From Escherichia coli (lineage in GTDB: Bacteria; Pseudomonadota; Gammaproteobacteria; Enterobacterales; Enterobacteriaceae), in the NCBI RefSeq assembly GCF_003334765.1, contig NZ_QOWT01000002.1: DNA of 64,000 nucleotides, one strand, 5' to 3'. Positions 10,120-18,852 of the stretch are shown here, piece by piece. How positions within the stretch are numbered: the stretch's first letter is position 1; the number at the start of each line of letters is the position of its first letter. The translations under genes were made by a program, and so were the position numbers. A model generated the notes under the pieces. The model was not told the DNA's origin, did not search any database, and saw nothing but the letters and a program-made list of their open reading frames with translations.

Positions 10120-10977
10120 ATGAAATACATTGGAGCGCACGTTAGTGCTGCTGGCGGTCTGGCAAATGCCGCAATTCGCGCCGCCGAAATCGACGCAACC
10201 GCGTTTGCCTTGTTCACCAAAAACCAACGTCAGTGGCGTGCCGCACCGCTCACGACGCAAACCATCGATGAATTCAAAGCCGCCTGTGAAAAATATCACT
10301 ACACATCGGCGCAAATTCTTCCCCACGACAGTTATCTGATTAACCTCGGACATCCGGTCACTGAAGCTCTGGAAAAATCGCGCGATGCCTTTATAGATGA
10401 AATGCAGCGTTGCGAACAGCTGGGGCTTTCTTTGCTCAACTTCCACCCTGGCAGCCATCTGATGCAGATTTCAGAAGAGGATTGCCTTGCGCGTATTGCC
10501 GAATCCATCAACATTGCGCTGGATAAAACTCAAGGTGTGACAGCGGTGATAGAAAACACCGCCGGTCAGGGCAGTAACTTAGGGTTTAAATTCGAACATC
10601 TCGCGGCGATTATCGACGGCGTGGAAGATAAATCCCGCGTCGGCGTCTGCATTGATACCTGCCATGCTTTCGCTGCCGGGTATGATTTGCGTACTCCAGC
10701 CGAATGCGAGAAAACATTCGCGGATTTTGCCCGTACTGTCGGCTTTAAGTATCTGCGCGGGATGCACCTTAACGATGCGAAAAGCACCTTTGGCAGCCGC
10801 GTTGACCGCCATCATAGCCTCGGTGAAGGCAATATCGGTCATGATGCGTTCCGCTGGATCATGCAGGACGACCGTTTCGACGGCATTCCGCTGATCCTCG
10901 AAACCATCAACCCGGATATCTGGGCAGAAGAGATCGCCTGGCTGAAAGCGCAACAAACTGAAAAAGCGGTAGCCTGA
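10120..10977 (+). CDS. nfo: Endonuclease IV (AP endonuclease), 285 aa
   Basis: ORF track 285 aa, recognised Nfo sequence. Confidence 0.95.
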
Positions 10978-10979
10978 AG

Positions 10980-12068
10980 ATGAATAACCGGGAAAAGGAG
11001 ATCCTTGCAATTTTACGGCGTAACCCGCTGATTCAGCAGAACGAAATTGCGGACATGCTGCAAATCAGCCGTTCGCGCGTTGCGGCGCATATTATGGATT
11101 TAATGCGCAAAGGCCGGATTAAAGGCAAAGGTTACATTCTCACCGAGCAGGAATACTGCGTAGTGGTGGGGACAATCAATATGGATATTCGCGGGATGGC
11201 GGATATCCGTTACCCGCAATCGGCTTCTCATCCCGGTACAATTCATTGCTCAGCGGGCGGCGTGGGACGCAACATCGCCCACAATCTGGCGCTGTTAGGC
11301 CGTGACGTCCATTTGCTTTCAGTGATTGGCGATGACTTTTATGGCGAAATGCTCCTGGAAGAAACGCGCCGTGCCGGCGTGAATGTCTCCGGCTGCGTTC
11401 GTTTGCATGGTCAAAGCACATCGACGTATCTGGCAATTGCCAATCGAGACGATCAAACCGTGCTGGCGATTAACGATACCCATCTGCTGGAACAGTTGAC
11501 ACCGCAACTACTGAACGGGTCGCGCGATTTACTTCGTCATGCGGGCGTGGTACTGGCTGATTGCAACCTGACAGCCGAGGCGCTGGAATGGGTCTTTACC
11601 CTCGCTGATGAAATCCCGGTGTTTGTCGATACCGTTTCAGAATTCAAAGCGGGCAAAATCAAACACTGGCTGGTGCATATTCACACCCTGAAACCCACTT
11701 TACCGGAGCTGGAAATTTTATGGGGACAGGCGATCACCAGCGATGCTGACCGTAATACCGCAGTGAATGCATTGCATCAGCAAGGTGTTCAGCAACTGTT
11801 TGTTTATTTGCCCGATGAGTCAGTTTATTGCAGCGAAAAGGATGGAGAACAATTTTTGCTGACCGCGCCAGCGCATACGACAGTAGACAGTTTTGGTGCT
11901 GACGATGGTTTTATGGCGGGCCTGGTATATAGCTTTCTTGAAGGATACAGTTTCCGCGACAGCGCCCGTTTTGCGGTAGCCTGCGCGGCAATTTCGCGCG
12001 CCAGCGGCAGCTTAAACAACCCTACCCTGTCTGCCGATAACGCGCTTTCATTAGTGCCAATGGTGTAA
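10980..12068 (+). CDS. yeiI: YeiI, N-terminal HTH domain fused to a PfkB/ribokinase-family sugar kinase, 362 aa; substrate unknown
   Basis: ORF track 362 aa; kinase part aligns by eye with PsuK (GGVGRNIA.NLALLG, HTLKP); 2-nt gap after the nfo stop suggests co-transcription. Confidence 0.9.
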   Translation: MNNREKEILAILRRNPLIQQNEIADMLQISRSRVAAHIMDLMRKGRIKGKGYILTEQEYCVVVGTINMDIRGMADIRYPQSASHPGTIHCSAGGVGRNIAHNLALLGRDVHLLSVIGDDFYGEMLLEETRRAGVNVSGCVRLHGQSTSTYLAIANRDDQTVLAINDTHLLEQLTPQLLNGSRDLLRHAGVVLADCNLTAEALEWVFTLADEIPVFVDTVSEFKAGKIKHWLVHIHTLKPTLPELEILWGQAITSDADRNTAVNALHQQGVQQLFVYLPDESVYCSEKDGEQFLLTAPAHTTVDSFGADDGFMAGLVYSFLEGYSFRDSARFAVACAAISRASGSLNNPTLSADNALSLVPMV

Positions 12069-12074
12069 CAATGT

Positions 12075-12167
12075 TGCCGGATGCGACGCTTAACGCGTCT
12101 TATCCGGCCTACAAATCAGGCAATTTCAGCAAGTAAATGTAGGCCTGATAAGCTTGCGCATCAGGCA
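12075..12167. repeat. REP pair (BIME-like) between convergent yeiI and nupX
   Basis: gccggatgcgacgc...cttatccggcctac and gtaggcctgataagc...gcatcaggc imperfect palindromes, typical REP. Confidence 0.8.
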
Positions 12168-12174
12168 ATGACAC

Positions 12175-13425
12175 TCAAGCTAAACCAATAAAGAACCCGG
12201 CAATGGTCGCACTCATCAAGTTGGAAAGCGTCGCCGCCGCCAGCGCCCGTAAACCAAGCTGGGCGATTTCCGGCGCACGGTGTGGCGCAACCGCAGAAAA
12301 CGCCCCCACCACCACCCCGATAGAACCAAAGTTAGCGAAACCGCACAACGCGAAGGAAATAATCGCCACAGTTTTAGCATCGAGAGTGCCAGCCGTTTGC
12401 AGATAGGGTGAGAAATTGAGATAAGCGACAAATTCATTTATTGCCAGTTTCTGTCCAATCAAACTCCCGGCAAGATTCGCATCACTCCAGTCCACACCCA
12501 TCACCCACGCCAGTGGAGCCAGCAGGTAACCTAAAATGGACTCCAGCGAGGCATGTTCAAAACCAAACCAGCCACCAACGCCGCCGATAATACCGTTAAT
12601 CAACGCAATTATTGCAACAAATGCCATCACCACTGTTGCCACACCTGCGGCGATTTTCAGCCCGGTCATTGCCCCTGTCGCAGCGGCTTCAATAATGCTT
12701 TTTGGCGGTGTTTCGGTGAAAGAGAGGTTATTAAAGGAAACCTGCGAAGATTCCGTTGCCGGGCTTAACAGGCGGGCAAACAAGATCCCGCCAGGGATCG
12801 CCATTAATGATGCCGCCAGCAGATATTCCACAGGCACGCCCAGTGCGGCGTAACCAATCATTGTCGAACCAGCAATCGAGGCCATGCCACTACAAATCGC
12901 TGTAAATAATTCATTGCGATTCAGACGATCGATAAAGGGTTTGACGATTGCCGGAATTTCGTTTTGCCCGAGGAAAATGGTGGTGACCGCGACGAATGAC
13001 TCGATCTTGCTGATATTTAATGCTTTCTGGAAGATACCGCCGAGAATTCGAATTAAAATCCCCATCACACCGATGTAGTAGAGAATACTCACCAGCGCGG
13101 TGACGAAGATAATTGCCGGTAACACCCTGAAACCAAAGATAAATCCTGCACCATCAAATAAGGTATCCATTTTCGGTCCGACCAGAGAACCGAAGATAAA
13201 TGCGCTACCCGCGTCGCTGTACGCCATCACTTTATGCACGCCAAAAGCGACTTTTTCAGCGACCCAACGCCCTGGCGGTAACCAAAGCATAATGCCGCCA
13301 ATCACGACCTGTAACACTAACGCCGCGCCAACGGTACGCAGGCTGATCTTCTTCTTGTTTACTGACAGTAAAAACGCAATCGTCAGCAATACCACCATTC
13401 CCAGAACACTTCTCATGACATCCAT
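12175..13425 (-). CDS. nupX: Concentrative nucleoside transporter (CNT family) NupX/YeiJ, 416 aa
   Basis: ORF track 416 aa; highly similar to the psuT product in this window. Confidence 0.92.
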   Translation of the reverse strand: MDVMRSVLGMVVLLTIAFLLSVNKKKISLRTVGAALVLQVVIGGIMLWLPPGRWVAEKVAFGVHKVMAYSDAGSAFIFGSLVGPKMDTLFDGAGFIFGFRVLPAIIFVTALVSILYYIGVMGILIRILGGIFQKALNISKIESFVAVTTIFLGQNEIPAIVKPFIDRLNRNELFTAICSGMASIAGSTMIGYAALGVPVEYLLAASLMAIPGGILFARLLSPATESSQVSFNNLSFTETPPKSIIEAAATGAMTGLKIAAGVATVVMAFVAIIALINGIIGGVGGWFGFEHASLESILGYLLAPLAWVMGVDWSDANLAGSLIGQKLAINEFVAYLNFSPYLQTAGTLDAKTVAIISFALCGFANFGSIGVVVGAFSAVAPHRAPEIAQLGLRALAAATLSNLMSATIAGFFIGLA

Positions 13426-13524
13426 AGTGATTATCTCTTCATGTCATATTGGGCGACGGCTTTCTGCCCATCAGAAATAGCCAGGCCTGCATCTTGCGAT
13501 ACCGGCCCGGCTTGTTATCAACAC

Positions 13525-14466
13525 TTAATGGGTTTTGATGTAGCCGCGCACGCACTCTTCGACTAATCCCCAGAACCAGTCTGTATCAATAGTGATGCCG
13601 ACTTTGGTATTGGCGGGCTTGCCAAGAACGCCCAGCTCGTCGCAGACGGTACGCCCATAGCAAGGGCCACTGTTGACGTCCACTTCGACGTACATCTCCT
13701 GGGTTTTAATGCCATCAGGGTTAATCAGATAACCGATGCAGGTGGCGTCGTGCACCGGGCCGCCAGCAAGGCCGTAGTTTTCGAACTGCGTTTTGAGAGT
13801 GAAGTTCATGATGTCGCTGAACAGCTCTCCGGCGGGGCCGCCTGCCCTTTCCATCCGAGCAATCACGTCCGGGGTGCAAACGGTCTGGTTGGTGAGATCG
13901 AGGCCCATCATCACTAATGGAACGCCGGAGGTGAACACTACGCGTGCGGCTTCCGGGTCGGCAAAGATGTTGAACTCGGCAGATGGCGTGAAGTTGCCTG
14001 TACCGTAAGCGCCGCCCATTAGCACAATTTCACGGATTTTGGGCAGGATCGCGGGTTGCATACGCATTGCCACCGCGATATTTGAAAGCGGACCAACCGG
14101 CACCAGAGTGATATCGCCATCGCTTGCCATCAGGGTATCAATGATATATTTCACCGCATGAGTGCTTTCTGCCTGGCGGGTCAGCGGCTCGAATACCGGG
14201 CCATCCAGTCCGGTTTCACCGTGAATATTATCGGCAACGATTTGTTGACGCATAATGGGCTGCGGCATCCCCGCATAAACCGGAACATTAATCTCCAGTT
14301 TCTGGCAAACATTCAGGCCATTAATTAATGTTTTATCAAGCGTCTGATTACCCGCTACAATAGTGATGCCTAATAAATCTATTGCCGGATGTTTCGCCGC
14401 CATCATTATAGCAATAGCATCATCATGACCCGGATCACAATCCAGAATAATTTTTCTCTTTTCCAT
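13525..14466 (-). CDS. rihB: Pyrimidine-specific ribonucleoside hydrolase RihB (IU-NH family), 313 aa
   Basis: ORF track 313 aa; N-terminal [12 protein letters not shown] nucleoside hydrolase motif. Confidence 0.94.
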
Positions 14467-14634
14467 TGTTTATTTCCTCTGTTTCCAGTTGCGTTATTTT
14501 TCCTACAGCAAAGAAAATTCGACCGGGCCGATGATTGAATCTTAACAACAGCGTACGTATGCTAAATATGAGAAATCTCATAGCGGATAAACATCGTGAA
14601 AGAAATCCACAATAATGATCTTAAGCAGCAATTG

Positions 14635-15294
14635 ATGAGTGAATCCGCGTTTAAGGATTGCTTTTTAACGGATGTTTCAGCCGATACGCGGCTGTTTCAT
14701 TTTTTAGCGCGTGACTACATTGTGCAGGAAGGGCAACAGCCGTCCTGGCTGTTTTACCTGACGCGAGGCCGCGCCAGGCTTTACGCCACGCTAGCTAATG
14801 GTCGCGTGTCGCTGATCGATTTCTTTGCCGCCCCCTGTTTTATTGGCGAGATTGAGTTAATCGATAAAGACCATGAACCGCGTGCGGTGCAGGCTATTGA
14901 AGAGTGTTGGTGCCTTGCGCTCCCTATGAAACATTACCGTCCGCTGTTATTAAACGACACGCTATTTTTACGAAAACTCTGCGTCACCTTAAGTCATAAA
15001 AATTATCGTAATATTGTTTCTTTAACTCAGAATCAATCATTTCCGTTAGTGAATCGCCTGGCAGCATTTATATTACTCTCGCAGGAAGGTGATCTTTATC
15101 ACGAAAAGCATACGCAAGCGGCAGAGTATTTAGGCGTTTCTTATCGACATCTTTTATATGTTCTCGCGCAGTTCATTCACGACGGTTTATTAATTAAAAG
15201 CAAGAAAGGGTATCTCATTAAAAACAGAAAGCAGTTGTCAGGACTGGCGCTGGAGATGGACCCGGAGAATAAATTCTCCGGGATGATGCAGTAA
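14635..15294 (+). CDS. yeiL: CRP/FNR-family transcriptional regulator YeiL (conventional start [10 protein letters not shown]...); track ORF begins 13 codons upstream at 14596
   Basis: ORF track 232 aa; cNMP-binding-like fold plus C-terminal HTH; start choice between 14596 and 14635 is uncertain. Confidence 0.85.
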
Positions 15295-15316
15295 AAATTA
15301 TTTTCAATAGCGCGAT

Positions 15317-15354
15317 TGCCGGATGCAACGCTTAATACGTTTTATCCGGTCTAC
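15317..15354. repeat. REP element downstream of yeiL and psuT
   Basis: tgccggatgcaacgcttaatacgttttatccggtctac, REP-type imperfect palindrome. Confidence 0.75.
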
Positions 15355-15364
15355 AAATCGAGCA

Positions 15365-16615
15365 TTACGCCAGACCAATAAAGAACCCGGCAATAGTCGC
15401 ACTCATCAGGTTGGAAAGCGTTGCTGCTGCCAGCGCCCGTAAACCAAGCTGGGCGATTTCCGGCGCGCGTTTTGGCGAAATAGCCGAAAATGCGCCAACG
15501 ACAACACCGATAGAACCAAAGTTAGCAAAACCACAAAGCGCAAAGGAGATAATCGCAATGGTTTTCACTTCCAGCGTGCCGCCCGTTTGCAGGTATGGGG
15601 AGAAACTCAGGTAAGCGACGAATTCGTTAATCGCCAGTTTCTGCCCAATCAGGCTACCCGCAAGATTGGCATCACTCCAGTCCACACCCATGATCCACGC
15701 CAGCGGTGCCAGCACATAGCCAAAAATACTTTCCAGAGAGGCATTGGCGAAACCAAACCAGCCGCCAATTCCGCCGATAATGCCGTTGATCAGCGCAATA
15801 ATTGCGACAAACGCCATTACCACCGTCGCCACACCAGCGGCGATTTTTAGCCCGGTCATCGCACCGCTCGCCGCCGCTTCGATAAAGCTTTTTGGCGGCG
15901 TTTCGCTGAACGACAGATTTTCAAATGTGACCTGCGAAGGCTCGGTTGCCGGGCTAAGAATACGTGCAAACAAAATCCCGCCAGGGATCGCCATCAGCGA
16001 TGCCGCTAACAGGTAGTCAATTGGTACGCCCATTCCGGCATAACCAATCATCATCGAACCAGCAATGGACGCCATCCCGCTACAAATTGCGGTAAACAAC
16101 TCGTTGCGATTCATGCGATCGATAAACGGTTTAACGATCGCCGGGATCTCATTTTGCCCGAGGAAAATAGTAGTAACCGCAACAAAAGATTCGATTTTGC
16201 TGATGTTGAGGGCTTTCTGGAAAATGCTGCCAAGGATGCGAATCAGCAGCCCCATCACGCCAATGTAGTACAGCAGACTGATGAGCGCAGTAACGAAAAT
16301 AATCGCCGGAAGTACGCGAAAGGCGAAGATAAAACCCGCACCGTCAAACAGGACATCCATTTTCGGCCCAACCAGCGAACCAAAAATGAAGGCGCTACCG
16401 GCATCACTGTAAGACATCACTTTATGAACGCCTAATGCCGCCTGTTCTACTGCCCATTTTCCCGGTGGGAAGTAGAGCATGATGCCACCAATAGCGATTT
16501 GCAGCAGCAGTGCGGCTCCAACCGTGCGCAAACTGATGCTCTTTTTATTCACTGACAACAGAAATGCTATTGCCAGTAACACCACCATCCCCACAACACT
16601 TCTCATTATATCCAT
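15365..16615 (-). CDS. psuT: Putative pseudouridine transporter (CNT family) PsuT/YeiM, 416 aa
   Basis: ORF track 416 aa; paralog of nupX; last gene of the psuK-psuG-psuT unit. Confidence 0.92.
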   Translation of the reverse strand: MDIMRSVVGMVVLLAIAFLLSVNKKSISLRTVGAALLLQIAIGGIMLYFPPGKWAVEQAALGVHKVMSYSDAGSAFIFGSLVGPKMDVLFDGAGFIFAFRVLPAIIFVTALISLLYYIGVMGLLIRILGSIFQKALNISKIESFVAVTTIFLGQNEIPAIVKPFIDRMNRNELFTAICSGMASIAGSMMIGYAGMGVPIDYLLAASLMAIPGGILFARILSPATEPSQVTFENLSFSETPPKSFIEAAASGAMTGLKIAAGVATVVMAFVAIIALINGIIGGIGGWFGFANASLESIFGYVLAPLAWIMGVDWSDANLAGSLIGQKLAINEFVAYLSFSPYLQTGGTLEVKTIAIISFALCGFANFGSIGVVVGAFSAISPKRAPEIAQLGLRALAAATLSNLMSATIAGFFIGLA

Positions 16616-16708
16616 AATGATTTTCCCTTCATGCCGGTAAATCCGGCGTCAGCGCCAGGTTTTGGTATGCTTGATGAGTACGGGCGACGGCTTTCTGCCC
16701 GTCAGAAA

Positions 16709-17647
16709 TTAACCCGCGAGACGCTGATATTCTTTGGCAATTTCGCTCGCCAGAATGGCGTTGTTGAACACCAGCTGGATGTTGGATTTCAGGCTGTCAC
16801 CGCCGGTCAGTTCAGCAACGCGCGCCAGCAGGAATGGCGTACTTTCTTTACCAATGACTCCCTGAGCTTCAGCTTCAGCTACCGCCTGATCGATCGCCGC
16901 ATTGATAGTGTGTTCCGGCATAGCAAACTGTTCCGGGATCGGGTTCGCTACCACGAGGCCACCGTTCAGACCGCTTTGCCATTTCACCGCCATTGCACGG
17001 GCAATTTCGCTGGCGCTGTCGAGACGAATGCTGACGTCAAACGGGCTGGTGCGGCAGAAAAACGCAGGCAGCGCTTTAGTCTGATAGCCAATTAACGGCA
17101 CACCGAAGGTTTCTAAATACTCAGTGGTTAATCCTAAATCGAGAATAGATTTCGCCCCGGCACAAACAACGGTGACATTAGTATTTGCCAGTTCTTGCAA
17201 ATCGGCAGAAATATCGAAGGTATGTTCCGCCCCGCGATGCACACCACCAATTCCCCCGGTGGCAAATACTTTAATTCCGGCAAGCGCCGCAATAATCATC
17301 GTTGAAGCCACAGTGGTTGCGCCATTTTTTCCGGCGGCAACAACAAAAGGTAAATCGCGACGACTAACTTTGGTCACGTTATGCCCTTCACGACCCAGTA
17401 ATTCAATTTCTTCTTTGCTTAACCCCACTTTCATCACGCCGCCAATAATGGCGATCGTGGCAGGTACAGCGCCCTGTTTACGAATAGTTTCTTCAACTTC
17501 AATTGCGGTCTGGGCATTTTGTGGGAACGGCATCCCGTGAGAAATAATGGTCGATTCCAGCGCCACAACCGGTTTTTTGTTTTTTAAAGCGTCCTGCACT
17601 TCCGGGGAAATTTGTAATAATTCAGGGGAAATTTTTAATTCAGACAT
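16709..17647 (-). CDS. psuG: Pseudouridine-5'-phosphate glycosidase PsuG/YeiN, 312 aa
   Basis: ORF track 312 aa; recognised YeiN/indigoidine-synthase-A-like sequence. Confidence 0.93.
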   Translation of the reverse strand: MSELKISPELLQISPEVQDALKNKKPVVALESTIISHGMPFPQNAQTAIEVEETIRKQGAVPATIAIIGGVMKVGLSKEEIELLGREGHNVTKVSRRDLPFVVAAGKNGATTVASTMIIAALAGIKVFATGGIGGVHRGAEHTFDISADLQELANTNVTVVCAGAKSILDLGLTTEYLETFGVPLIGYQTKALPAFFCRTSPFDVSIRLDSASEIARAMAVKWQSGLNGGLVVANPIPEQFAMPEHTINAAIDQAVAEAEAQGVIGKESTPFLLARVAELTGGDSLKSNIQLVFNNAILASEIAKEYQRLAG

Positions 17648-18576
17648 TCTGCGTTCTCCACTAACGATATAACGTTGGCAATCGATAAATCGGGGTTATT
17701 GGTGTATTCACAGGAGAGCGCCATTGACGAACATCCCTGTGCGAAACGAACAGATTCGGCAAACGGCATTCCGTCTACCCAACACGAAGCAAGTCCCGCC
17801 ATCATGGCATCGCCCGCTCCGGTAACATTAATAACATTGGTTTTGATCGGCGCAGACCAGCCACTTTCACCGCTGATATCGCTGTAATAAACGCCGTCGC
17901 CGCCCATGCTCAATACCAGTCGGTTCAGGCCATGTTGATGGAACCAGGCAGCAACTTTTGCCACATCTTCACGCCCTGACAGCGCAATCCCACTCAGGGT
18001 TTCCGCTTCAAGGCGGTTTGGCTTGAGAGTGTGGATCTGATTTAGACGGTCGCGCACTTTGACACATTTCCATGCCGAAACCGGATCGACAAATACGGGT
18101 ACGTTGGCGGCATTATCCAGAATCCATGCCAGTGCCTCTTCACTGATATTACAGTCCGCGACAATGACCTTTGCCCTCTGAATAAATTCACCGTGCTGTG
18201 CGAGATATTCAGCTGTAATAGCGTTGCTAATATTCATGTCATTTATAGCAACCAGCATTTCACCGGTATTATCGAGTAATGATAAATAACTCGACGTATT
18301 TTCTCCCGGCACAATCAGGCATTTATCGACATAAACGCCAGATTGATTGGTTTGCGTTAGCAGCGATTGACCATAAAAATCACTGCCTACGGCGCTCAGT
18401 AGCCAGGCTTTGTTACCCAGCAACGCCAGGTTTTGTGCAATATTGCGCCCTACTCCACCAGGCGTAAATTTTATTTTACCTGGATTTGAATCCGCATAAT
18501 TTAATGATTCATGTGAATATCCGGCGACATCAATATTCGCCGAACCTATAATTACGACATAATCCTTTTCGCGCAT
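17635..18576 (-). CDS. psuK: Pseudouridine kinase PsuK/YeiC (PfkB family), 313 aa; overlaps the psuG start by 13 nt
   Basis: ORF track 313 aa; GGVGRNIAQNLALLG and TGAGDAMMAG ribokinase motifs. Confidence 0.93.
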   Translation of the reverse strand: MREKDYVVIIGSANIDVAGYSHESLNYADSNPGKIKFTPGGVGRNIAQNLALLGNKAWLLSAVGSDFYGQSLLTQTNQSGVYVDKCLIVPGENTSSYLSLLDNTGEMLVAINDMNISNAITAEYLAQHGEFIQRAKVIVADCNISEEALAWILDNAANVPVFVDPVSAWKCVKVRDRLNQIHTLKPNRLEAETLSGIALSGREDVAKVAAWFHQHGLNRLVLSMGGDGVYYSDISGESGWSAPIKTNVINVTGAGDAMMAGLASCWVDGMPFAESVRFAQGCSSMALSCEYTNNPDLSIANVISLVENAECLN

Positions 18577-18643: not shown

Positions 18644-18679
18644 TTTAAACATGTGTTCATATTTAAACATGTGCTCATA
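18644..18679. promoter_or_regulatory. Tandem direct repeat of an 18-bp unit (TTTAAACATGTG[T/C]TCATA x2), 68-103 bp upstream of the psuK start codon; candidate operator
   Basis: Two adjacent 18-mers differing at one position, seen directly in the sequence. Confidence 0.4.
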
Positions 18680-18823
18680 GTATGCATGTTTTACGTAAAG
18701 TAAATTACCGCCAGAGAGGCAAAATGGGCAGATTTGAGCAGGCTCACAAAATGCGATTAAATGCCTGAATTACAAAAGCGAGGAATTTGTGACGGGATGC
18801 ACAGAACAGAACAATAAAAAAGG

Positions 18824-18852
18824 GCAGAAAATAATCTGCCCTTGAGGAAATA
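18824..18852 (-). terminator. Rho-independent terminator for the fruBKA operon (hairpin GGGCAGA..TCTGCCC with U-run on the minus strand)
   Basis: aaaaaagggcagaaaataatctgccc on the plus strand is a hairpin followed by a T-run on the minus strand, about 150 bp downstream of the fruA stop. Confidence 0.7.

Follow-up and report, generated by a model that had tools for sequence, protein, structure and literature searches.

Two PfkB-family kinases, two CNT-family transporters and two enzymes of nucleoside catabolism lie within 7.6 kb of Escherichia coli DNA, and the question is how they came to be there. A first-pass annotation saw two paralogous modules, yeiI/nupX/rihB and psuK/psuG/psuT, with the regulator gene yeiL sitting between them, and proposed an ancient local duplication of a kinase-transporter pair. 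The window analyzed here, 64,000 nucleotides in length, is from E. coli and is colinear with K-12. Comparison with related loci favors a different reading, to which we give a probability of roughly 0.6: the region is composite, with two functional units put together in at least three steps and YeiI regulating psuKGT, and is not a pair of duplicated modules.

The seven open reading frames are placed as in the first-pass annotation and have the same names in RefSeq, both in a 100%-identical E. coli genome and in K-12 MG1655. Upstream, nfo (endonuclease IV; 10120–10977, plus strand) stops 2 bp before yeiI (10980–12068, plus strand), which is therefore probably co-transcribed with it; the adjacency is kept in Enterobacter, [E.] lignolyticus and C. 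koseri. A REP-type palindromic element with a sub-threshold naRNA4 match (12062–12109) separates yeiI from nupX, and a similar element is found after psuT (15264–15351). On the minus strand are nupX (12175–13425; 416 aa) and rihB (13525–14466), the latter encoding a pyrimidine-specific IU-NH ribonucleoside hydrolase, with a spacer between them at 13426–13524. Divergent from rihB is yeiL (14596–15294, plus strand), for a CRP/FNR-family regulator, whose start is GTG 14596 in PGAP (232 aa) and ATG 14635 in the K-12 annotation (219 aa). The remaining genes, also on the minus strand, are the psuKGT (yeiC-yeiN-yeiM) operon of E. coli: psuK (17635–18576), encoding a pseudouridine kinase without a helix-turn-helix (HTH); psuG (16709–17647), encoding pseudouridine-5'-phosphate glycosidase and overlapping psuK by 13 nt; the psuG-psuT intergenic leader (16616–16708); and psuT (15365–16615; 416 aa). 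PsuG has no HMM match in NCBIfam; the gene is named psuG in RefSeq and its product is 89–91% identical to PF04227-bearing proteins of Salmonella, Enterobacter and lignolyticus. The intrinsic terminator of fruA (18820–18843, minus strand) bounds the psuK regulatory region.

Both paralogies are real. NupX and PsuT align without gaps at 367 of 416 positions (88% identity, above the 50% below which the proposal would have been refuted), and exactly nine of their first 50 residues differ, as had been counted by eye. The cores of YeiI and PsuK align with 39% identity over 307 residues (E = 7e-76), which places the kinases in sister, not unrelated, PfkB subfamilies. Each is the other's second-best NCBIfam family, at 255–260 bits versus 100–130 bits for ribokinase. 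RihB and PsuG are unrelated as stated, with no similarity on comparison (E = 4.2). The antisense open reading frames that had been cited as a further sign of transporter similarity (12203–12406 and 15411–15614) do exist and represent the same frame through the best-conserved 3' stretch of nupX and psuT, but they carry no independent weight because many others, comparable in length or longer, are listed across these genes.

YeiI, a protein of 362 residues, is a winged helix-turn-helix (wHTH) fused to a PUKI-like PfkB domain. The wHTH (PF13412, HTH_24; E = 2.3e-10) spans residues 1–48 (nt 10980–11123) and the PfkB domain (PF00294; E = 2.5e-67) residues 58–348 (nt 11151–12023). The protein meets its own equivalog, NF007416 "sugar kinase", with 811 bits against a cut-off of 561, and scores 255 bits on the PsuK equivalog NF007355, below the cut-off of 540. 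It shares the fold and the Ser30/Asn143/Lys170 triad of the PUKI/PsuK kinases with known structures (7VKP, 7VTD and others). The roles of the pseudouridine-contact and catalytic residues have been established in PUKI (PMC9061257), and all the contacts are kept in YeiI (N67, D69, S83, Y150, N165, N196 and K223), as is Asp309, the equivalent of the catalytic base. Here, the nucleobase triad Ser/Thr30, Asn143 and Lys170 and the ribose contacts Asn14 and Asp16 correspond to S83, N196, K223, N67 and D69, each retained in at least 45 of 47 YeiI-clade members.

The catalytic motifs are where YeiI departs from PsuK. T240 replaces the Asn of NxxE (Asn187), giving TxxE, and D308 replaces the second Gly of GAGD (Gly255), giving GADD, so that the PsuK combination of NxxE and GAGD is absent. 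Position 187 is T, S or A in 47/47 of the YeiI clade and N in 48/49 of the GAGD-type group; Gly255 is replaced in all 47 of the former (by D in 45) and present in all 49 of the latter. The catalytic Asp256 and the NxxE Glu190 (YeiI Asp309 and Glu243) are each kept in 43 of 47 clade members; a pure sensor would not need them, which hints at retained or altered chemistry, so that residual or altered activity in YeiI is possible. According to PMC12506659, citing Preumont 2008, a psuK mutant is unable to use pseudouridine as a carbon source; on that account, YeiI does not substitute for PsuK.

The DNA-binding domain is the more conserved half of this family. HTH-psuK-psuG-CNT is the gene order in Yersinia, Serratia and Pasteurella, and HTH-psuK-psuG that in Shewanella. 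Between the YeiI and HTH-PsuK groups the HTH domains are 65–74% identical, and the recognition-helix segment SRSxVAxHIM is nearly invariant across both (23 family members). Throughout the family the kinase domain is the less conserved of the two, so the divergence seen in that of YeiI is not clearly an acceleration.

A candidate target for this domain lies 72–99 bp upstream of the psuK ATG (18648–18675, minus strand), in the form of tandem AACAnnTGTT dyads, AGCACATGTT at 18675–18666 and AACACATGTT at 18657–18648, spaced 18 bp apart. In 11 of 12 loci the tandem dyad precedes psuK or HTH-psuK, and the dyad has 15 matches in 286 kb, where the null mean is 0.47; Salmonella has a single box only, at the homologous position. 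This distribution, alongside the HTH-PfkB gene family, suggests that the dyads are an operator for the YeiI wHTH. No other intergenic AACAnnTGTT box is present in the locus. Besides the lone box in Salmonella, two features count against the assignment: there is no box upstream of yeiI, and the 2-bp nfo-yeiI spacing is unusual for a dedicated local regulator. Next to the dyads is a candidate psuK promoter (18677–18704, minus strand), with a putative –35 of TTTACT (18704–18699), a 16-nt spacer and a putative –10 of TACTAT (18682–18677). Adaptive mutations recur in the psuK promoter region (PMC9509342, PMC7858067), and the recurrent SNP at –126 (A to C at window position 18702, plus strand) converts the candidate –35 to TTGACT. 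The recurrent SNPs in this region could in part be standing variation in K-12 stocks. No regulator of psuKGT is described in the literature searched, and a regulatory role for YeiI is apparently unpublished.

The genes yeiL and rihB have a separate origin from the psu genes and, judged by their comparative record, form one unit that is also present in Enterococcus. RihB meets NCBIfam equivalog NF007417 with 727 bits (cut-off 459) and is 76% identical to the Enterococcus malodoratus enzyme, which scores 604 bits on the same model and is encoded beside a yeiL homologue. YeiL scores 418.7 bits on NF007707 (cut-off 180) and is ~59% identical to its Enterococcus counterpart; its homologues carry PF00027 and PF13545, a cNMP-binding-like domain and a Crp-type HTH. 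The rihB/yeiL spacer contains TATGAGAAATCTCATA (14567–14582), a perfect 7-2-7 palindrome with a TGA-N6-TCA core of CRP/FNR type, unique in the window. The Enterococcus counterpart, TATGAGAATTCTCACA, has 14 of the 16 positions conserved. There, yeiL is divergent from an operon of rihB, ribokinase (rbsK) and a nucleoside-type (bmp/ABC) transporter; in E. coli the downstream transporter is instead a CNT copied from psuT, and ribokinase is absent from the operon. TATGAGAAATCTCATA is a candidate YeiL box through which YeiL may control rihB-nupX. The position assigned to yeiL between the modules is correct, but the gene does not merely sit there and most likely belongs to rihB-nupX. The earlier remark that no substrate is established for YeiI, NupX and RihB as a unit presupposes a grouping for which the comparative data give no support.

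The transporters are members of the CNT (NupC/vcCNT) family with different measured substrates despite their 88% identity. Both pass TIGR00804 (CNT, NupC/NupG family; curated cut-off 442 bits, full-length match), NupX with 499.5 and PsuT with 517.6 bits. They fall in a vcCNT-related clade, and NupX transports uridine and cytidine, weakly, whereas PsuT does not (PMC11241209). Uridine and cytidine are also substrates of RihB. Their conserved GQNE, INEF and CGFANFG motifs do not differ, so other positions must account for the difference in specificity; the first ~100 residues hold a disproportionate share of the substitutions. PsuT adjoins psuG and is 92–93% identical to the single-copy CNTs of the Salmonella, Enterobacter and lignolyticus psu operons, and is the true orthologue of the single psu-operon CNT of other Enterobacteriaceae. 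NupX follows rihB, not psuG, is 85–88% identical to all PsuT-type proteins, and does not group with the single-copy CNTs; it is not a PsuT orthologue. Its branch lies inside Affinibrenneria and outside the clade formed by PsuT of E. coli, Salmonella, Enterobacter and lignolyticus. About 18% of E. coli genomes carry the gene with an internal deletion.

The DNA around nupX records its source. Detectable duplicated DNA comprises psuT and the psuG-psuT leader, starting at the psuG stop codon, and no kinase sequence was found within it. The nupX-proximal ~55 nt of the rihB-nupX spacer are a copy of that leader (ATTTCTGAYGGGCAGAAAGCCGTCGCCC ... RBS) without its 41-nt hairpin segment; the rihB-proximal part folds as a strong hairpin. 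The leader is conserved in Salmonella, lignolyticus and Enterobacter and is the template of the nupX leader. The gene nupX is a copy of psuT and its 5' leader that is restricted to E. coli and Shigella. At the DNA level the two genes are 78.8% identical (52.5% at third codon positions), with dS of about 1.4 and dN/dS of 0.055.

How these pieces were joined can be judged against the gene orders. One ancient local duplication of psuK and psuT into yeiI and nupX, each copy later recruiting a different glycosidic-bond enzyme, would account for two pairs of true paralogues at such close quarters, and for YeiI and PsuK being each other's nearest curated family. However, YeiI and an HTH-less PsuK occur together in seven genomic contexts from six taxa (including two E. 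coli haplotypes), and five of these have one transporter and neither rihB nor yeiL. The order there is yeiI, then convergent CNT, psuG and psuK (yeiI-> <-CNT<-psuG<-psuK), in Affinibrenneria, lignolyticus, Enterobacter, C. koseri and Salmonella, where an accessory island carries the four genes. As the two kinases coexist with a single transporter, their split is older than the transporter duplication, and by transporter trees and identities NupX and PsuT separated after Affinibrenneria diverged, in which YeiI and PsuK are already distinct. Moreover, the duplicated DNA is leader and transporter only, yeiI is on the opposite strand to nupX-rihB with the psu operon as its historical neighbour, and rihB came together with yeiL. 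The paralogies are local, as proposed, but their origin in one joint event is very improbable. It is only somewhat unlikely that nupX was imported from another enterobacterial lineage, arriving within a yeiL-rihB-CNT block and recombining at the psuT already present. The position of NupX outside the PsuT clade fits this, as do saturation of the 5' 450 nt of nupX against every CNT (pS about 0.8), a dS to other genera of 1.95–2.1 for NupX against 1.34–1.74 for PsuT, the demonstrable mobility of yeiL-rihB across phyla, and yeiL and CNT genes on what, by their matching lengths, are putatively the same contigs in Buttiauxella, Kluyvera and Entomohabitans. Set against it are the homology between the nupX leader and the psuG-psuT spacer, which begins at the very stop codon of psuG, the 3' two-thirds of nupX, whose synonymous sites resemble those of E. 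coli psuT most (pS 0.54 vs 0.65), and the failure to find a NupX-type protein outside E. coli and Shigella. With synonymous sites saturated, nupX may have arisen by local duplication or by import.

The role of YeiI has its own alternatives. It is unlikely, if conceivable, that YeiI is an active self-regulating kinase for another nucleoside, such as a uridine derivative or a modified pseudouridine, with T240, D308 and T167 retuning catalysis and specificity instead of abolishing them. The largely conserved catalytic Asp and NxxE Glu would suit such an enzyme, as would purifying selection on the three clade-specific substitutions themselves, a dN/dS of 0.10 between two E. coli yeiI alleles, M114T in the nucleobase pocket and, according to PMC9247573, the ability of the EcPsuK pocket to take N1-methyl-pseudouridine. 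Against this, the NxxE Asn is lost throughout the clade, an acidic residue occupies the anion hole beside the gamma-phosphate site, and the three hallmark pseudouridine-recognition residues are unchanged; there is also no dedicated downstream enzyme, because the only conserved partners of yeiI are psu genes. The dyads, in turn, could be the site of a different regulator, neither YeiI nor HTH-PsuK. The 16-bp DeoR operator, TGTTAGAATTCTAACA, has TGTT/AACA ends, and TGTTTAAATATGAACA, the segment between the boxes, agrees with that palindrome at 11 of 16 positions; the psu genes are nucleoside-catabolic, like the DeoR regulon. Yet the dyads, but not the sequence between them, are conserved alongside the HTH-PfkB family all the way from Shewanella to E. 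coli, and these taxa share a nearly invariant wHTH recognition helix, which makes DeoR or another factor an improbable occupant.

The composite reading draws on the gene orders, identities, trees, motif states and operator conservation observed here. Its first unit would be an ancestral pseudouridine unit, the psuK-psuG-psuT operon with convergent yeiI. The first kinase of this operon combines an N-terminal winged helix with intact catalytic motifs in Yersiniaceae, Pasteurellaceae and Shewanella. Enterobacteriaceae and Affinibrenneria divide the two roles between two genes, PsuK being the enzyme without HTH and YeiI keeping the HTH and a complete pseudouridine pocket with altered NxxE and GAGD. 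From these sequence features we infer DNA binding, ligand, loss of catalysis and sign of regulation: YeiI would be a pseudouridine-responsive transcription factor, most likely a repressor, acting on the tandem dyads over the psuK promoter. The second unit, yeiL divergent from rihB-nupX, would serve uridine and cytidine uptake and hydrolysis. In this unit yeiL-rihB is a horizontally shared pair with its own palindrome that was inserted between yeiI and psuT, and nupX the copy of psuT and leader, now behind rihB, that has diverged in specificity.

A stronger version, held tentatively and at somewhat less than even odds, is that YeiI is a catalytically silent PfkB pseudokinase and pseudouridine-responsive psuKGT repressor that arose by partition of a bifunctional HTH-PsuK. 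Here, an ancestral enzyme and autoregulator, still seen in Yersinia, Pasteurella and Shewanella, would have given rise to an enzyme-only psuK and a sensor-only yeiI. The PsuK kinase domain shares 58–60% identity with the HTH-fused PsuK found in Yersinia, Serratia and Photorhabdus. In a neighbor-joining tree the YeiI clade (100% support) lies outside PsuK and the HTH-PsuKs, which would also fit YeiI as an old paralogue or a transfer in place of a neat partition of one ancestor.

Regulators and trigger enzymes derived from enzymes are familiar: the ROK repressors NagC and Mlc beside the ROK kinases, and BirA, NadR and PutA. The likeness is an HTH fused to an enzyme fold that serves as ligand sensor. 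HTH-PsuK would resemble the bifunctional BirA/NadR type and YeiI the sensor-only NagC/Mlc type, its loss of catalysis being read from the motifs; the fold here is PfkB, not ROK or biotin ligase. The plant proteins FLN1 and FLN2 are fructokinase-like members of the PfkB family reported to lack kinase activity, and they likewise keep the fold for a non-catalytic role in transcription; they are, however, eukaryotic, associated with the plastid polymerase, without an HTH, and related to YeiI at the superfamily level only. To our knowledge, no bacterial PfkB-derived transcription factor has been characterised. If the pseudokinase account is true, YeiI would be the first, and its repression of psuKGT would explain the repeated selection of psuK promoter-up mutations in the gut and in long-term stationary phase.

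The seven genes between window positions 10980 and 18576 lie in the order yeiI (+), nupX (-), rihB (-), yeiL (+), psuT (-), psuG (-) and psuK (-), with nfo preceding yeiI and fruA beyond psuK. All seven open reading frames are placed exactly as in the first-pass annotation and carry these names in RefSeq. By nucleotide search, the 7.6-kb locus is 100% identical to that of strain H3 and is found in all 5,426 complete genomes, while the window is colinear with K-12 MG1655 at an offset of 2,240,720. The annotation had described two like transporters, two alignable PfkB kinases and two unrelated enzymes, and each description holds. NupX and PsuT, both concentrative nucleoside transporters (CNTs), are each 416 residues long and agree without gaps at 367 of 416 positions (88%), with nine differences within the first 50 residues; YeiI and PsuK are 39% identical over 307 residues (E = 7e-76); and alignment of RihB with PsuG gave no similarity. 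NCBIfam assigned every protein as expected, with YeiI and PsuK each the second-best match of the other's model and ribokinase far below. The transporters thus lie above the 50% identity below which their proposed kinship was to be given up, and the kinases do not fall in unrelated subfamilies. Antisense ORFs, which had been offered as a further sign of kinship, do exist, but are a by-product of coding conservation at the transporter 3′ ends. As genes they were rejected, since they sit in the most conserved coding stretch and the locus carries many similar ORFs on the antisense strand. What was observed holds and, in the form given, was known before: textbook E. coli annotation includes the genes and their paralogy, the NupX/PsuT relation and the sisterhood of YeiI with the pseudouridine kinase PsuK (PUKI) are published, and NupX substrates have been measured, making the finding as written an ordinary one.

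The first-pass annotation went further, and suggested that yeiI/nupX/rihB and psuK/psuG/psuT arose from one ancient local duplication of a kinase-transporter pair. Both paralogies stand, but synteny shows separate events. Module co-occurrence was profiled using 12 genomic contexts obtained by exact-protein look-up, together with protein searches. In five taxa, Affinibrenneria salicis, [Enterobacter] lignolyticus, an Enterobacter, Salmonella enterica and Citrobacter koseri, yeiI points toward an oppositely oriented psuK-psuG-CNT operon with a single transporter and a PsuK that has no helix-turn-helix (HTH), and rihB, yeiL and a second transporter are absent. Therefore, yeiI is a conserved partner of the psu operon and not a member of a natural yeiI/nupX/rihB unit; the YeiI/PsuK split is older than the second transporter; and nupX-rihB-yeiL was inserted between yeiI and psuT in E. 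coli. In addition, YeiI and PsuK are only 37.5% identical over the PfkB domain, and kinases so much more divergent than the transporters speak against a single duplication. A composite history of the locus, built by separate events, is thus very probable. In the Salmonella enterica genome compared here (locus L013, 1-21095), yeiI-CNT-psuG-psuK is not between nfo and fruA but on an accessory island. This island also bears transposase genes and a RelB/ParE pair, and after it come a thymidine-phosphorylase-like gene and one of the IF-2B family (MtnA-like). In C. koseri (locus L014, 11361-14569), CNT, psuG, psuK and the neighbouring fru genes are split into many short ORFs, reflecting either widespread pseudogenisation or a low-quality assembly.

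YeiI itself comprises an HTH_24 domain (residues 1-48, E = 2.3e-10) followed by a PfkB domain (58-348, E = 2.5e-67), and its closest solved structure is E. coli PsuK (E = 1.8e-66), which fixes its fold. A search for YeiI homologues showed that the winged HTH (wHTH)-PfkB architecture is broadly distributed across Gammaproteobacteria, with a further example in one Burkholderiaceae metagenome-assembled genome. The 96 full-length sequences of the family alignment divide into two groups. The YeiI clade (47 sequences) consists of Enterobacteriaceae and Affinibrenneria. The GAGD-type group (49 sequences) consists of E. coli PsuK and 48 HTH-fused proteins from Yersinia, Serratia, Photorhabdus, Xenorhabdus, Erwinia, Pasteurellaceae, Shewanella, Aliivibrio, Ferrimonas and Burkholderiaceae. 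The HTH-fused genes among the latter hold the operon position of psuK: Yersinia, Serratia and Pasteurella have the operon HTH-PfkB - psuG - CNT with the fused kinase first, and Shewanella has HTH-PfkB - psuG. Xenorhabdus carries two HTH-PfkB paralogues per chromosome, of 363 residues (P0085/P0098) and 355 residues (P0086/P0096), which is an independent duplication of the fused kinase; the one 355-residue sequence aligned (P0103) has GAGD-type motifs.

Published residue roles in EcPUKI allowed the YeiI pocket to be read residue by residue. In EcPUKI, Asn14 and Asp16 bind ribose, Ser30 contacts N1 of pseudouridine and is the specificity trigger, Asn143 contacts N3/O4, Lys170 contacts O2 and Asp256 is catalytic (PMC9061257). 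On alignment to these residues, all EcPUKI nucleoside contacts are kept in YeiI: Asn14/Asp16 as N67/D69, Ser30 as S83, Tyr97 and Asn112 as Y150 and N165, Asn143 as N196 and Lys170 as K223, with the catalytic Asp256 present as D309. YeiI differs from EcPUKI at three positions, namely Met114 to Thr, Asn187 of the NxxE motif to Thr and the second Gly of GAGD (position 255) to Asp. In ribokinase-family enzymes, NxxE has a Mg-ATP/phosphate role and GAGD forms the anion hole. Across the 96 sequences the three changes co-vary perfectly with clade. Position 187 is Thr, Ser or Ala in 47/47 of the YeiI clade, position 255 is non-Gly in 47/47 (Asp in 45) and position 114 is Thr in 45/47; the GAGD-type group has Asn187 in 48/49, Gly255 in 49/49 and Met114 in 49/49.

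If the HTH regulates the operon, a site should be conserved wherever the HTH is found. Unbiased 10-mer enumeration returned the palindrome AACACATGTT in nine of ten upstream regions, where sites of this type form tandem dyads 18-19 bp apart. In E. coli these lie at -99 (box 1, window 18675-18666) and -81 (box 2, 18657-18648) relative to psuK. Tandem dyads are also present in the second E. coli haplotype (AR_0055), lignolyticus (perfect), C. koseri, Enterobacter and Affinibrenneria, as well as in Pasteurella (-32/-14) and Shewanella (-57/-38). A scan of 286 kb gave 15 tandem matches against a null mean of 0.47, and a tandem dyad is directly upstream of psuK or HTH-psuK in 11 of the 12 loci, Salmonella alone having a single box. 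In Yersinia and Serratia (loci L005/L006, 9996-10027), the dyad overlaps the called HTH-psuK start (MFKNKQVS...); the true start is therefore probably an internal Met (MTSREK...) 27 nt downstream, and all other family members start at the equivalent Met. No such box was found in the window upstream of yeiI, nfo, nupX, rihB, yeiL or psuT, nor upstream of yeiI in Salmonella and Affinibrenneria. Both groups share a wHTH recognition segment, ISRSxVAxHIM, that hardly varies, and their HTH domains are 65-74% identical. As YeiI is the only E. coli protein with this HTH, it is the natural predicted occupant of the boxes.

A recurrent adaptive mutation falls next to these boxes. In long-term stationary phase, a psuKp allele, intergenic (-126/+297), A to C, was reported in three populations, and the -126 site is also listed among differences already present in the parental strains (PMC7858067). 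The psuK/fruA spacer in the window is 422 bp, exactly 126 + 297 - 1, which maps the substitution to window position 18702, equivalent to K-12 position 2,259,422. Read on the psuK sense strand, TTTACT becomes TTGACT; 16 nt downstream of this hexamer is TACTAT (18682-18677), immediately next to box 1. From these motifs, the change is a predicted -35 improvement directly upstream of the predicted operator. A promoter-region A-to-C substitution of psuK also arose in five of seven mouse-gut populations and in one resident strain, where it alters growth with and without pseudouridine, an effect attributed by the authors to changed psuK expression (PMC9509342); it is probably the same -126 change, the match being the base change A to C only. 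The TTTACT/TACTAT promoter would place the two boxes at about -5 to +23, a position typical of a repressor. However, a consensus scan returned an alternative promoter candidate directly downstream of box 2, so that the repressor sign is tentative.

Taken together, gene order, pocket and boxes suggest that YeiI, derived from an HTH-fused kinase, senses pseudouridine and regulates psuKGT, a reading which appears to be unpublished and to which we give a probability of roughly 0.6. Here, YeiI would keep the pseudouridine pocket as a sensor, with its phosphoryl-transfer machinery disabled or altered. A machine-learning method has called YeiI a pseudouridine kinase. That call has been argued to be a paralogue error, on the ground that a psuK mutant cannot use pseudouridine (PMC12506659). 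Elsewhere, YeiI has been treated as an uncharacterised sister of PUKI (PMC9061257). The changes at 187 and 255 suggest impaired or altered chemistry, but Asp309 and Glu243 are kept in 43 of the 47 YeiI-clade members, and it is chiefly this retention that calls for caution; loss of catalysis is given even odds. A suspected acceleration of the YeiI kinase domain relative to its HTH was weakened, because other deep comparisons within the family give a similar ratio of HTH to PfkB identity. The regulator reading would itself give a rationale for the machine-learning mis-annotation.

The second transporter has a different history. The nupX and psuT genes are 78.8% identical in DNA (52.5% at third codon positions), with dS ~1.39, dN 0.076 and dN/dS 0.055 by NG86, pointing to strong purifying selection on both copies. 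E. coli psuT is equally distant from its Salmonella or lignolyticus orthologues (dS 1.34-1.40), so the duplication is old, at roughly genus-divergence depth. PsuT shares 92-93% identity with the single-copy CNTs of Salmonella, Enterobacter and lignolyticus, and NupX shares 85-88% with PsuT and with those CNTs alike; both E. coli transporters are ~80% identical to the Affinibrenneria CNT and ~75% to that of Yersinia. In a neighbour-joining tree, NupX joins the core-Enterobacteriaceae PsuT clade at its base, inside Affinibrenneria, and in a set of 108 close homologues the NupX type (96-100%) was confined to E. coli and Shigella. DNA homology between the two genes starts at the psuG stop codon and takes in the psuG-psuT leader (ATTTCTGAYGGGCAGAAAGCCGTCGCCC ... 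RBS), minus a 41-nt hairpin segment, and REP-type elements lie downstream of both; the duplicated unit was thus leader plus transporter.

At synonymous sites nupX (12175-13425) is a mosaic: against every CNT, E. coli psuT included, the first 450 nt show saturation (pS ~0.8), and its 3′ 800 nt are closer to E. coli psuT (pS 0.54) than to other genera (0.65). This pattern may reflect old partial gene conversion between the paralogues, and would be compatible either with local duplication long ago and partial conversion since, or with import followed by recombination. Rfam at a permissive threshold gave sub-threshold REP/naRNA4 matches only, with no riboswitch or known leader, and folding of the transporter leader in four species (z = -1.6, -3.05, -3.05 and +0.56) did not consistently support a structured RNA. 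A predicted strong hairpin, AGCCGGGCCGGUAUCGCAAGAUGCAGGCCUGGCU (13476-13512, minus strand), lies 3′ of the rihB stop, before the psuT-type leader, and the rihB-nupX spacer folds with z = -3.05 against shuffles; such a hairpin could attenuate nupX relative to rihB expression. The transporters also differ in substrate: NupX takes up uridine and cytidine with low efficiency, PsuT takes up neither of these nor xanthosine (PMC11241209), and deletion of psuT strongly reduces pseudouridine uptake (PMC13090712).

The gene for YeiL, a CRP/FNR-type regulator, had been noted between the two modules. YeiL homologues share 70-77% identity across many enterobacterial genera and, surprisingly, 57-59% in Enterococcus. 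The E. malodoratus yeiL gene diverges from an operon that encodes an IU-NH hydrolase, a ribokinase and a Bmp/ABC transporter. Of these, the hydrolase has 76% identity to E. coli RihB and scores above the cut-off of the RihB equivalog, and the kinase satisfies the ribokinase model. The two yeiL/rihB divergent spacers (window 14467-14595; Enterococcus locus L016, 7899-8000) have a 16-bp palindrome in common. The E. coli copy (14567-14582), TATGAGAAATCTCATA, is a perfect 7-2-7 repeat, and the Enterococcus copy is TATGAGAATTCTCACA. The palindrome holds the TGA-N6-TCA core shared by CRP/FNR sites, occurs once in the 64-kb window, and is centred 60 bp upstream of the K-12 yeiL ATG and 108 bp upstream of the rihB ATG. 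Annotations differ on where yeiL starts, with GTG 14596 in PGAP (232 residues) and ATG 14635 in K-12 (219 residues), and the Enterococcus homologues have 223 residues; depending on the start, the candidate box ends 14 or 53 nt before it. According to a summary of RegulonDB, YeiL has one credited target, itself (PMC9308461). Given this and the shared palindrome, we propose that YeiL regulates a rihB-nupX unit and does not arbitrate between two modules; the hypothesis is specific and testable, and appears to be unpublished. In this scheme, yeiL and rihB(-nupX) would form a single regulatory unit that moves horizontally and serves to hydrolyse pyrimidine nucleosides, and the sharing of pair and palindrome would imply inter-phylum transfer of a regulator-enzyme unit.

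The locus also varies within E. coli. Approximately 975 of 5,431 records (~18% of complete genomes) lack nupX, giving only a 79-80% cross-match to psuT. In AR_0055 (locus L002, 3590-3860), nupX is reduced to its first ~70 nt and last 48 nt, which meet at a GTT microhomology, with ~1.14 kb deleted between them (window 12223-13358). As remnants persist at both ends, the deletion is a derived loss, and nupX is dispensable in a large lineage. This haplotype has ordinary nucleotide identity to the window at yeiH (99.3%), nfo (98.2%), rihB (96.4%), yeiL (98.1%) and fruA (96.8%), whereas yeiI (10980-12068; 80.8%, dS 0.95) and psuK (17635-18576; 80.5%, dS 1.38) are as different as between genera; psuT and psuG are intermediate (89%), and dN/dS is low in all genes. 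Across genomes yeiI alleles are bimodal, with 3,361 at 95% or above, two at 90-95% and 2,060 at 80-90%, and ~1,208 genomes have no megablast match to the window psuK. As the counts for yeiI, nupX and psuK differ, recombinant mosaics exist. The deep dimorphism of yeiI and psuK could be due to introgression, or to long-lived polymorphism of the putative regulator and the kinase together. Strain IH5 has a truncated yeiI (62% coverage) and strain BL12 an IS1 insertion in psuK.

The comparison gives yeiI, a long-standing y-gene, a testable function, with pseudouridine as ligand, psuKGT as target and a predicted operator of 28 bp. The yeiI/psuK pair would offer a natural example of an enzyme-plus-regulator fusion that split into an enzyme and a sensor. 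Similarly, the orphan regulator YeiL gains a plausible target in rihB-nupX, with a candidate box whose conservation extends to Enterococcus. Pseudouridine salvage bears on gut fitness, the psuK promoter being a repeated target of adaptation, and on industrial pseudouridine production, in which psuT is routinely deleted, so an unrecognised repressor of the psu operon would be of practical use.
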